DNA of 64,000 nucleotides from an uncultured Pelagibacteraceae bacterium (GCA_902634455.1 CACPKQ010000005.1:302-64301); one strand, 5' to 3'; numbered from the stretch's first letter, positions 3,788 to 7,154 are shown. Notes: generated by a model not told the origin, from the letters alone. Program-made: numbers and translations.

Positions 3788-4777
3788 AGATTTAATTTTA
3801 TTTACCAATTCTTCGTTTATATTTCTTGGACCCTTATCAAGTCTATTTTTATGTCTTCTCTCACCTGGTAGTCTGACACCGTCCATAGATTTCATTTTAT
3901 CAAAAAATTCATTAGAGTGTTTGTCCCAATCGTTTTCAGATAATTTATCAGGAGAAATAGCTAATATAAATTCGCCTCCACTTGGTGGTCCACCGTCATT
4001 ATTATCTTTGGCTGCTGTCTCGTAGCTAAAATTATCTCCAACTAATGATCCAGCTAATAATTCGACCATCATAGCTATAGCTGATCCTTTATAACCTCCA
4101 AAGGGTAGTAGAACTCCTCCATCAGCTATTTCACCTGGATCGGTAGTTTCTTTTCCATCTTTACTTAAACCTGTTCCTAAAGGAACTTTATGACCTTCTC
4201 TTTTTGCAACTTGAACCTCACCCATTGCCATAGACGCTGTAGCCATATCATAAACAACTGGAGTTTTTCCTTTTCTAGGCCAAGCAAATGAAATTGGGTT
4301 TGTCCCAAATAAAGATTTTTTTCCACCAGCAGGAGCAACCATCGGTTTATAAGATGTGCAAGCAAACGCGACAAGACCTTGCTCTGCTATCATTTCAGTT
4401 TCAGGCCACATAGCAGCCATGTGATGTGAATTATTTATAGCTAAAACAGCTATACCATTTTCTTTAGTAGCTTTTATTAGTTCTGGAATACCTTTATTTA
4501 AAACAACTGGAGCTAAGCAATTATTTCCTAAAACCTTAATTACACTTGGTGATATTTTTTTTATTTCAGGTTTACCTTTGCCATTAATTTTTCCACTTTT
4601 TAGACCTGACACATAAGCGGGCAATCTGAATAAACCGTGCGATAAAGAACCATCTCTTTCTGCTTTCATTATTAAATCTGAAAGAATTGACGCTGTTTCA
4701 TCATCACAGCCATTAGCTAACAAAGTTTTTTTAGCTAAATTAAATATTTCATCTAGGCTGAGAGAAATAGTTTTCAC
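3779..4777 (-). CDS. Ldh_2-family NAD(P)-dependent oxidoreductase (ComC/DpkA/AllD-like)
   Basis: AERDGSLSHGLFRL, GTNPISFAWP, DMATA, LLPFGGYKGS and RLPGER motifs; GTG start. Confidence 0.85.
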   Translation of the reverse strand: MKTISLSLDEIFNLAKKTLLANGCDDETASILSDLIMKAERDGSLSHGLFRLPAYVSGLKSGKINGKGKPEIKKISPSVIKVLGNNCLAPVVLNKGIPELIKATKENGIAVLAINNSHHMAAMWPETEMIAEQGLVAFACTSYKPMVAPAGGKKSLFGTNPISFAWPRKGKTPVVYDMATASMAMGEVQVAKREGHKVPLGTGLSKDGKETTDPGEIADGGVLLPFGGYKGSAIAMMVELLAGSLVGDNFSYETAAKDNNDGGPPSGGEFILAISPDKLSENDWDKHSNEFFDKMKSMDGVRLPGERRHKNRLDKGPRNINEELVNKIKSLS

Positions 4778-4792
4778 AGAAACTATTAAATA

Positions 4793-5194
4793 TTATCTGT
4801 GTTTTCTTTTCAAATCCTTTTTAAGATCTTCGTGATCACCTACTACGGTATGATATTTACTTTTGGTTACATATTTTTCTAAAAAAGGTACTGCAAGTAA
4901 AGGTAAAAATCCTCCAATGACAATACCAAATGCTGCACTTTTTAAATGAGGATCCGCTAAAGCAGCTATAAAATCAGCTATTATATGGGCTAAAACAATT
5001 CCAATAATTCCTGCGATTGCGCCATTTGATATTAATTTTAAAAAACGGTTTATACTCCAACCAGTATAAAAACCGACTAGGGGTATTAAAGTGTGTATAA
5101 ATCCAAAAGTCATACCTCTTAATACACTATGTTCTTCTATTAATTCTTCCATAAAATGAAGAAACTCGGGTAATTCATGTGCATGGCCTTCCAT
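4793..5194 (-). CDS. His-rich small membrane protein (about 3 TM), co-transcribed with zur; candidate Zn transporter
   Basis: 133-aa ORF with His/Glu-rich N-terminus (MEGHAHE...H...EEH) and three hydrophobic segments with intramembrane H/H/D. Its start overlaps the zur stop. Confidence 0.75.
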   Translation of the reverse strand: MEGHAHELPEFLHFMEELIEEHSVLRGMTFGFIHTLIPLVGFYTGWSINRFLKLISNGAIAGIIGIVLAHIIADFIAALADPHLKSAAFGIVIGGFLPLLAVPFLEKYVTKSKYHTVVGDHEDLKKDLKRKHR

Positions 5195-5559
5195 TAGTTA
5201 CATCCTTTGCAAGTTGTTAATACTTCCATTGAAAAATCTTTAAAATTATAATTTTTGATATTATTTTTCTTAAAAAAATTAGCGAATAGATTTGATTTTA
5301 ATTCTTCTGTATCACCACATTTTTTACATATAGCTATTGCAGTATTATGGTTATCATCATGTTTGTGATTACATAAAATGAAAGTTTTATTTTTGTTAGA
5401 TTTATGTATTCTGTCCTCTTTTATTAAGCTATCAAGAGCACGGTATACAGTCATTGGTTGAGTTTTTTTAATTTTTTGAAGTTTATTTAGAATATCGTAA
5501 GCAGTTAAATGACTACTTGATTTCTTAATAATATTAAAAACTATTTCTTTATTAACCAT
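5194..5559 (-). CDS. zur: Fur-family regulator, Zur subtype
   Basis: AYDIL, QPMTVYRAL, IHK, CxH, CKKCG and C-terminal CKGC; a Zur-like box sits at its own promoter. Confidence 0.85.
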   Translation of the reverse strand: MVNKEIVFNIIKKSSSHLTAYDILNKLQKIKKTQPMTVYRALDSLIKEDRIHKSNKNKTFILCNHKHDDNHNTAIAICKKCGDTEELKSNLFANFFKKNNIKNYNFKDFSMEVLTTCKGCN

Positions 5560-5578
5560 GTTATGTTATAACATAACA
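5559..5578. promoter_or_regulatory. Zur box (perfect 20-bp palindrome TGTTATGTTATAACATAACA)
   Basis: Exact inverted repeat. It contains the TGTTAT-n3-ATAACA core of proteobacterial Zur sites in two overlapping registers and covers the zur -10 and start codon. Confidence 0.85.
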
Positions 5579-5593
5579 ATATTTATATGTCAA
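5565..5593 (-). promoter_or_regulatory. Sigma70 promoter of a leaderless zur transcript
   Basis: Minus strand reads TTGACA (5593-5588), 17 bp, TATAAC (5570-5565). Predicted TSS is about at ATG 5559. Confidence 0.7.
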
Positions 5594-5599
5594 GTTTTT

Positions 5600-6031
5600 A
5601 TGAAAAATATTTTGTTTGTTTGTACTGGAAATTCACATAGAAGCATTATTGCAGAAGCTATAGTTAACAATAATTTTAATGACAAATTAAAGGCTTATAG
5701 CGCAGGTAGTAATCCAGCTGGAGTTGTGGATGGTGATGTAATTAAGTTTTTAAAAGCAAAAAACTATGATCTTAGGAATGTATCATCAAAAAATTTTGAT
5801 ATTTTTATTAATAGTGAAGTTAAAATGGATTATGTGATTACCGTATGTAATAGTGCAAATAAAGAATTCTGTCCTATTTGGCCTAAAAAAGATCAAATTA
5901 TTCACTGGGATATTGAAGATCCAATGACCAAACTCTTAAATTCTAACGAAGAAGAAAAAAAAATTATCGTTTCAAACACTTTTGATGTAATTAATGGAAA
6001 AATTAGAGAGTGGGTCAATATGACTGTATAA
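5600..6031 (+). CDS. arsC: Thioredoxin-type arsenate reductase / LMW-PTP family
   Basis: CTGNSHRS P-loop, SAGS, VITVC...CP resolving cysteines, HWDIEDP; likely start ATG 5600. Confidence 0.8.
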   Translation: MKNILFVCTGNSHRSIIAEAIVNNNFNDKLKAYSAGSNPAGVVDGDVIKFLKAKNYDLRNVSSKNFDIFINSEVKMDYVITVCNSANKEFCPIWPKKDQIIHWDIEDPMTKLLNSNEEEKKIIVSNTFDVINGKIREWVNMTV

Positions 6032-6188: not shown

Positions 6189-7154
6189 ATGGAACTCTCA
6201 TTAATATATACCATAGTAGGATTTGGACTAGCAGGTTGGTCTGTTATTGGAAATGACTCTATTCAAACTTTAGGTACATTTATTGCCTCTAAACAAAAAT
6301 GGTTTAAATGGTATACACTTGCTGCTTCCGCATCATTTGTAATGATCTTAGCTCTTGCTTGGGGGTGGTATGCTTATGATGGTGATATTTCTTATGGGAG
6401 ATTAACGAGAATACCTTACCAAGAAATTCAATGGTATCATGCTGTTGCTCCAGGAATACTTTTGTTATTAACAAGAGTTGGTATTCCAGTTTCTACAACC
6501 TTCTTAGTGTTGTCTGCTTTTGCATCAACAGTTGTTTTAGAAAAAATGTTAATGAAAAGTGTTGTTGGTTACGGTTTGGCTGCTGTAGTTGCTTATATTT
6601 CTTGGATAACAATATCAAAATTTATTAATGAAAAGTTTGATGAAGTTGATGATAAATGGATTGGATTTTGGCGTAACTCTGTCTGGATTACCTCTGGTTG
6701 GTTATGGTGGGTTTGGTTATCACATGATGTTGCAAATATAGCAGTATATCTACCACGACAATTGAGCCCTACTCTCCTTATTACAGTAATGGCATACTTT
6801 ACAATTCTACTATTTTATATTTTTTATATTCATGGTGGACCTATTCAAAAAGTTGTTTTAGATAAAACTGGAACCAGATATGCAAGATCAGCCACAATTA
6901 TTAATGTAATCTATGCTGCGGTATTGTTTTACTTTAAAGAATTAAATGACCTTCCGATGTCAACCACTTGGGTATTTGTTGGATTACTATGTGGCCGAGA
7001 ATTAGCAATTTCGACTATGAATAAAGATTATAAATTTAAATATGTTTTCCCATTAATTGGAAAAGATTTTATTAAAATGATTTTCGGATTAAGCGTATCA
7101 GTCGGAATAGTGCTTGCTATTCACTATATAATAATTCCATATGGATTTTTTTAA
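6189..7154 (+). CDS. PiT-like (phosphate/sulfate) permease
   Basis: Polytopic; two internal repeats GNDSIQ...PVSTT and HDVAN...PMSTT resemble the PiT GxND/HD(V)AN and PxSTT signatures. Confidence 0.7.
   Translation: MELSLIYTIVGFGLAGWSVIGNDSIQTLGTFIASKQKWFKWYTLAASASFVMILALAWGWYAYDGDISYGRLTRIPYQEIQWYHAVAPGILLLLTRVGIPVSTTFLVLSAFASTVVLEKMLMKSVVGYGLAAVVAYISWITISKFINEKFDEVDDKWIGFWRNSVWITSGWLWWVWLSHDVANIAVYLPRQLSPTLLITVMAYFTILLFYIFYIHGGPIQKVVLDKTGTRYARSATIINVIYAAVLFYFKELNDLPMSTTWVFVGLLCGRELAISTMNKDYKFKYVFPLIGKDFIKMIFGLSVSVGIVLAIHYIIIPYGFF

Follow-up and report, generated by a model that had tools for sequence, protein, structure and literature searches.

A Zur-linked three-helix membrane protein of SAR11 bacteria, a diverged relative of TMEM65, as candidate zinc importer in place of ZnuABC

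Introduction

What a Zur-type regulator controls when no ZnuABC transporter is encoded beside it is the question raised by a short locus from an uncultured Pelagibacteraceae bacterium. The window analysed here, one strand of a 64,000 nucleotide stretch of DNA (GCA_902634455.1, CACPKQ010000005.1:302-64301), contains a zur gene that is followed by the gene of a small membrane protein, called X below. The SAR11 bacteria are among the most abundant organisms of the ocean. A survey of their metal transporters detected ZnuABC in only half of the genomes and ZIP transporters in none, leaving the zinc supply of the ZnuABC-free half unexplained (PMC4771312). An X-like protein is not mentioned in that survey, and no description of X was found in the literature on SAR11 zinc and Zur, on bacterial TMEM65 homologues or on DUF2453. 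The computational analysis described here indicates that X probably imports Zn2+ without ATP and under Zur repression, in place of ZnuABC.

Results

Organization of the zur-X unit

The features of the locus are listed below, with positions counted from the first letter of the window.

5194-5559, minus strand: zur, Fur-family regulator of 121 amino acids with two CxxC pairs (PF01475, E 3.7e-9)
4793-5194, minus strand: X, three-helix membrane protein of 133 amino acids, His-substituted, TMEM65 family, candidate Zn2+ importer
5203-5208, minus strand: Shine-Dalgarno-like AAAGGA for X within the 3' end of zur, read from the sequence
5560-5577, unstranded: putative Zur box, perfect 18-bp palindrome GTTATGTTATAACATAAC, directly ahead of the zur ATG
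5565-5570, minus strand: -10 element TATAAC, within the Zur box and 5 nt ahead of the ATG, read from the sequence
5588-5593, minus strand: -35 element TTGACA, with a 17-nt spacer to the -10 element, read from the sequence

Base 5194 ends the zur stop codon TAA (5196-5194) and begins the ATG of X (5194-5192), and the AAAGGA sequence lies 8 nt ahead of the X start. This confirms the stop/start overlap described in the sequence-only reading of the window, which had also noted that znuABC does not follow zur; none is present at the locus. As predicted from this layout, zur and X are a two-gene, translationally coupled unit. A gene for a malate/L-lactate-dehydrogenase-type protein (Ldh_2) lies 15 nt past X on the same strand, and no terminator-like site was seen between positions 4700 and 5700.

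X is not a chance open reading frame, because 2513 homologues were found (E<=1e-3), 281 X loci were located in species-representative genomes and 46 columns are invariant among 28 orthologues with identities down to 54%. The records of its close relatives are those of Pelagibacter or Pelagibacterales (SAR11), and include the cultured strains HIMB4, HIMB058, HIMB1483, HIMB1509, HIMB1517, HIMB1611 and HIMB1695.

The regulator and its operator

The top NCBIfam match of the zur product was Zur (E 7e-16), although the score falls short of the equivalog cut-off of the model. Among solved structures the best match was E. coli Zur (4MTD, E 2.5e-11), while Fur was matched at only E 6e-4. The genome contains two other Fur-family genes, whose products score 137 and 70 bits with the FUR profile compared to 36 bits for zur. 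By sequence similarity the regulator is closest to Zur among the Fur-family proteins.

The GTTATGTTATAACATAAC palindrome occurs once in the genome, even with up to three mismatches allowed, and is identical in 16 of 18 positions to GATATGTTATAACATATC, the Zur box predicted by Panina et al. for the Rhodobacter group of the alphaproteobacteria (quoted in PMC2706843). The other zur-X loci represent several genera; their box is unchanged or almost unchanged, is surrounded by unrelated DNA and is placed 0-5 nt ahead of the start codon. The TTGACA element is found at equal spacing in most of the orthologous loci; the TATAAC element was left out by the promoter consensus scan, which demanded a T at position 6. 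The geometry of the box is that of a predicted repressor operator. As the -10 element is inside the box and 5 nt before the ATG, the zur mRNA would be leaderless or near-leaderless, and the position of the operator over the -10 element implies repression at plentiful zinc. The Zur control proposed in the sequence-only reading thus holds as a prediction from an invariant operator of alphaproteobacterial type that overlaps the -10 element.

A different kind of box is found upstream of SAR11 znu genes. The znuA/znuC intergenic regions L043:10178-10258 and L044:6767-6839 contain a pair of gamma-type Zur boxes in tandem, TGTTATATTATAACA or GTTATAATATAAC. The znu boxes are gamma-type with a central spacer, whereas the zur-X boxes are of the 9+9 alpha-type. 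Two Zur lineages with two predicted types of operator coexist in the Pelagibacterales.

On the other side of the box an arsC/LMW-phosphatase-like reading frame occupies 5558-6031 of the plus strand, with ATG 5558 as its listed start. Its orthologues begin at MKNILFVCTGNS, corresponding to ATG 5600 in the window, which is 40 nt from the zur ATG and has the Zur box 23-40 nt upstream; the box might also act on this divergent gene. Further along the plus strand, positions 6189-7154 encode a multi-pass membrane protein of 321 amino acids whose sole family match was PHO4 at E 0.12. This protein adjoins zur in several other X genomes (L001, L011, L012 and L024).

Sequence and predicted topology of X

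The features of X are as follows; all are on the minus strand, and the helix boundaries are those of the AlphaFold2 (AF2) model.

5156-5185, minus strand: N-terminal His cluster H4-x-H6...H13, predicted periplasmic
5063-5128, minus strand: TM1, residues 23-44
5093-5095, minus strand: H34, invariant, replaces the family Asp in TM1
4955-5020, minus strand: TM2, residues 59-80
4985-4987, minus strand: H70, invariant, replaces the family Asn in TM2
4973-4975, minus strand: D74 in TM2, conserved superfamily-wide
4868-4942, minus strand: TM3, residues 85-109, with the Gly-rich face GI-x-x-GG-x-x-PL
4826-4852, minus strand: tail motif H115-x-V-V-G-D120-H121-[ED]-D123, conserved, predicted cytoplasmic

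The 133-residue protein, the helices and the histidines quoted in the sequence-only reading are all present, and the AF2 model contains three helices. The mean pLDDT of the model was 75.6 (101-row alignment), rising to 86-96 in the TM2/TM3 core. H34 and H70 are each at position 12 of a 22-residue helix, placing them mid-membrane, with D74 one turn further along TM2. Residues H4, H34, H70, D74, D81-P82, H115, D120, H121 and D123 were invariant in all 28 orthologues carrying the His substitutions (H-type), as was the WSINR loop, so that the conservation expected of the intramembrane histidines was found for both H34 and H70. Of the N-terminal cluster H4 alone is invariant, and the cluster is not kept in deeper clades.

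Most close orthologues of X are 154 amino acids long and have a 21-residue N-terminal extension relative to the window protein. The extension resembles a signal peptide, with a KK pair, a hydrophobic core and a cleavable-looking V-R-A / A-E-G-H sequence; cleavage would give a mature protein with the H-x-H...H start of the window protein. Together with a first loop and a tail that are rich in Lys and Arg, this signal-peptide-like extension argues for a predicted topology with the N-terminus in the periplasm and the C-terminus in the cytoplasm.

Relationship of X to the TMEM65 family

An exhaustive phmmer search of 1.84 billion cluster representatives gave just 160 relatives of X. The near relatives are SAR11-like, and the search also reaches three-helix proteins of a second type, here called DN-type. 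These far relatives share 29-44% identity with X, are approximately 90 amino acids long and carry the motifs FG-x-x-DN, GN-x-x-SD and GI-x-x-GC-LIP in helices 1, 2 and 3 respectively. The DN plus N-x-x-SD combination was present in 102 of 109 DN-type proteins; 49 of 73 DN-type relatives matched the TMEM65 family profile PF10507 at E<=0.01, and two of ten scanned singly passed its cut-off. No PF10507 match (gathering score 25 bits) was obtained for X at E<=1 or for the 28 H-type orthologues at E<=0.1.

Alignment of a profile of the 28 H-type orthologues with a profile of 13 DN-type proteins using hhalign gave a probability of 99.6% and an E value of 4e-24 over 90 columns. In the alignment H34 falls on Asp and T35 on Asn in TM1, and H70, A73 and D74 of TM2 fall on Asn, Ser and Asp respectively; residues G27, G31, G45, G65, D74, D81, G90 and G94 are invariant in both types. 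The DN and N-x-x-SD motifs of the family are therefore His-Thr and His-x-x-Ala-Asp in X, with the last Asp alone retained, and the three-helix core of the family is present in the AF2 model. Judged from these alignments, X belongs by descent to the TMEM65 superfamily, of which it is a divergent member. In a quick maximum-likelihood tree the H-type proteins formed one clade (SH-aLRT 100) on a long stem of 2.39 changes per site, which fits a His form that arose once.

Many of the DN-type relatives are of marine metagenome origin. One of them, the 92-residue TMEM65-like P0331, has its gene on marine phage-like contigs (L051:6001-6279, L052:1927-2205 and L053:1416-1694) among small genes and near terminase, prim-pol and DNA methylase genes. 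Phages may thus carry a putative small cation transporter of the TMEM65 family; a scan of viral contigs found no H-type X. A further subgroup, the DQ-type (P0240 of 287 amino acids, P0237, P0242 and P0245), has an added N-terminal helix and long C-terminal extensions, with one member fused to ankyrin repeats.

Comparison with other families and folds

No NCBIfam model matched X, and the only Pfam matches were two marginal ones, to MntP and ZIP. The MntP profile (PF02659) gave 24.6 bits compared to a cut-off of 24.4, a marginal pass; all 28 orthologues matched it weakly, with scores below that of the window protein (19.8 bits, for example). Membership of the MntP family was rejected, the hhalign alignment with E. 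coli MntP being limited to one helix of 27 columns at a probability of 31.6%. The ZIP profile (PF02535) gave 22.3 bits compared to a cut-off of 35.1, over positions 17-102 of 323, and 12 of the 28 orthologues matched it weakly. ZIP membership was also rejected, the score being below the cut-off and X having three helices instead of eight.

Comparison of the X sequence with solved structures gave chance matches only (E>0.2). When the AF2 monomer was compared with the PDB using Foldseek no match was obtained at E<=0.001; the top rows were PsaL of photosystem I, a resemblance that was set aside as a generic three-helix match. In a wider structural search PsaL scored Z 8.1 and VIT1 (6iu4_A) Z 7.3, both within the background range for helical proteins. 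VIT1/CCC1 (PDB 6IU4) ranked eighth with an rmsd of 3.7 over 83 residues and 18% identity at that background-range Z, and no sequence-level link between X and VIT1/CCC1 was found. The sequence-only reading had compared the helices with a joint TMEM65/VIT-like pattern; the TMEM65 half is borne out by the motifs and by hhalign, while the VIT half is a possible fold link at a background-range Z. Predictions of a dimer from two copies of X and two Zn ions scored 0.38, 0.34 and 0.45, on both sides of the mark of 0.42, and the importer reading does not lean on them in either direction.

Distribution of X and ZnuABC

The distribution of X was examined in 301 Pelagibacterales genomes, with ZnuA defined as a PF01297 match over the cut-off. 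X was present in 36 genomes, ZnuA in 241 (a count that takes in one unpublished genome, G111, used for no other result) and both in none, although these complementary counts overstate the number of separate events because related genomes are not independent. X was therefore found in 36 of the 60 genomes without ZnuA, and in approximately one in eight SAR11 species. Five genera are mixed, with X/ZnuA counts of 19/172 in the 200 genomes of g1, 4/2 in the 6 of g2, 1/1 in the 3 of g4, 2/17 in the 21 of g5 and 1/3 in the 5 of g9, and within these genera too no genome contained both.

ZnuA (PF01297) was not found in the genome of the window, which is 81% complete, and its sole ZIP-like match is X itself, under the family cut-off. 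Five X genomes that are 99-100% complete contained no ZnuB (PF00950) and no ZIP besides X. Of five genomes checked that have neither X nor ZnuA, four also lack the third Fur-family gene. One of the five, G143, was missed by the ZnuA profile and is Znu-type, with znuC-znuB-zur beside Ldh_2.

The zur gene adjoins X in 34 of the 36 X-carrying genomes; in 33 it precedes X in the same orientation, and in one the two genes are divergently arranged with the box between them. The pair alone is conserved, with neighbouring genes that differ among lineages. G019 and G136, two genomes of one genus, carry an intact X with all invariant residues (L049:2992-3369 and L050:2992-3372); zur is not found beside X in either, and the box is missing from both genomes altogether. 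In G019 (L049) X comes after the gene of a 418-residue membrane protein. That these two genomes keep X without zur or box counts against the importer reading.

In several genera zur-X and the znu genes occupy the same chromosomal slot. The order in the window, which belongs to genus g1, is xthA, Ldh_2, X, zur, arsC-like; in G121 it is xthA, znuA / znuC znuB zur, arsC-like, and in G143 it is znuC, znuB, zur, Ldh_2, xthA. In genus g2, zur-X of G001 lies between genes for proteins of 175 and 354 amino acids, and G021 has zur-znuB-znuC / znuA at this point, with flanking proteins that are 84-99% identical. In genus g5, one and the same interval between two conserved genes differs between G117, with X, and G123, with Znu. 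Each of the three genera thus shows the swap at a different chromosomal position, and the proteins on either side are 65-99% identical.

The Zur proteins beside X and beside Znu are just 33-36% identical, and the X gene tree is incongruent with the genus labels: copies from g5 and g7 fall inside g1, and a single copy from g1 clusters with those of g2 (the incongruent copies are L017, L020, L028 and L029). This suggests, on the gene tree, that SAR11 lineages exchanged the zur-X cassette laterally, and taken with the differing box types it appears that whole regulator-plus-transporter cassettes were exchanged.

Three proposals of the sequence-only reading are touched by these distributions. The linkage of zur with homologues of X recurs in 34 of 36 genomes. 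A zinc-uptake role is favoured, as a prediction from sequence, by the complementarity with ZnuABC and by replacement at the same locus. A role of X in serving the PhnA and MetE-like enzymes encoded nearby was not upheld, since zur-X recurs in several unrelated gene contexts.

Discussion

Proposed function and mechanism

The broader reading, towards which we lean slightly, is that X represents a new class: an ATP-independent bacterial zinc importer of approximately 130 residues and three helices with the TMEM65 fold, changed from Ca2+/Na+ to Zn2+ by two His residues, the smallest dedicated metal importer known, exchanged as a cassette and marking the ion site of TMEM65. Purified TMEM65 is reportedly a homodimer that catalyses Na+/Ca2+ exchange in liposomes, extruding Ca2+ against Na+ entry (PMC13254257). 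It was initially proposed as a regulator of NCLX and not as a carrier. Because TMEM65 extrudes its divalent ion, the inward direction of X is not predicted by the family. This weighs against the importer reading, as do the lack of a PF10507 match for X, the poor conservation of the N-terminal His cluster in deeper clades and the 81% completeness of the window's genome.

For X itself we infer the zinc substrate, the inward direction, the oligomeric state and the energy coupling, and uptake would proceed as follows. Zn-loaded Zur would sit on the 18-bp operator over the -10 element and block the promoter; when zinc is scarce zur and X would be de-repressed as one leaderless coupled mRNA. X would be an inner-membrane protein with a periplasmic N-terminus and a cytoplasmic Lys-rich tail, and an oligomer, by analogy with TMEM65 perhaps a parallel homodimer. 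The exchange of Asp and Asn for His would give each protomer a mid-membrane His/His/Asp set typical of Zn2+ and not of Ca2+/Na+, through which Zn2+ would pass from periplasm to cytoplasm without ATP. In many members the N-terminal His cluster may help to capture the ion, and the H-x4-D-H-[ED]-D motif of the cytoplasmic tail would receive it. The presence of Thr and Ala where other members have Asn and Ser suggests loss of the family's Na+ sites, and the driving force would then be the membrane potential and a steep gradient of free zinc.

Alternative functions

X could instead be a Zur-regulated accessory protein that does not transport: it might buffer or chaperone zinc, modulate Zur as a sensor or assist another transporter as its partner. 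X has only three helices, the regulator role first proposed for TMEM65 is a precedent, and metal binding could be all that the conserved His/Asp motifs in the soluble ends of X do. This is nevertheless unlikely, as invariant polar residues in the middle of TM1 and TM2 are costly unless they line an ion path, no other importer was found in the complete X genomes with the ZnuA, ZnuB and ZIP profiles, and reconstituted TMEM65 reportedly transports alone.

Import of another divalent metal, or of a broader range (Mn2+, Fe2+, Co2+, Ni2+, Cd2+), under a regulator that senses that metal is quite improbable. The weak MntP match of all 28 orthologues and the weak ZIP match of 12 would accommodate it, as would the score of the regulator under the NCBIfam Zur cut-off; ZIP transporters carry several metals, and Co, Ni and Fe are also bound by His/Asp sites. 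Zinc is preferred because the palindrome is a Zur-box-type operator, the solved structure most similar to the regulator is that of Zur rather than Fur, it is specifically znuABC-zur that is found instead of zur-X at the shared loci, and the two further Fur-family regulators could cover Fe and Mn.

Very improbable is a TMEM65-like exporter or antiporter of zinc or another cation, moving a divalent ion out against Na+ or H+ entering from sea water: TMEM65 itself works outward, and the His-containing sites of cation-diffusion-facilitator exporters couple Zn2+ to H+ antiport, but an operator overlapping the -10 element would repress X at plentiful zinc, the opposite of what an exporter needs, X occurs only where no zinc importer was found and occupies the importer slot, and the Asn and Ser ligands for Na+/Ca2+ are Thr and Ala in X.

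Significance

If X is the importer proposed here, it would fill the ZnuA gap in most of the ZnuA-free genomes searched (36 of 60) with a zinc importer of approximately one seventh the coding size of ZnuABC, a case of genome streamlining in which a pump gives way to a mini-carrier. The DN-type and H-type proteins would then form a natural selectivity-switch series for the TMEM65 family, whose mechanism and link to human disease are under active study, and the substitutions in X would mark ion-site residues of human TMEM65. The presence of X in the cultured strains HIMB4, HIMB058 and HIMB1483 makes this reading directly testable.

Comparison with known systems

The closest known system by descent is the TMEM65 family (PF10507, formerly DUF2453), comprising mitochondrial TMEM65 and the DN-type prokaryotic and phage proteins of approximately 90 residues. 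Its three-helix core is in the same helix-by-helix register as X; the His-bearing N-terminus, the H-x4-DH[ED]D tail, which is not found in DN-type relatives, and the predicted Zur control belong to X only, and the predicted substrate (Zn2+) and direction (inward) of X differ from those of TMEM65. MntP has in common with X the helix motif G-x-x-FG-x-x-[E/H]-T-L-x-P-L-I-G, in which H34 is opposite the Glu of MntP TM2, but MntP is a Mn2+ exporter with six helices in two repeats compared to the three helices of X. ZIP transporters, including ZupT, are secondary, ATP-independent zinc importers with intramembrane His/Asp/Glu ligands; they have eight helices and a metal site on TM4 and TM5. ZnuABC shares with X a Zur-type regulator and, in sister genomes, the chromosomal slot, and the two are mutually exclusive. 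They are unrelated in sequence and structure, ZnuABC being three proteins that include a binding protein and an ATPase and X a single protein of 133 amino acids; their roles are presumed to be equal.
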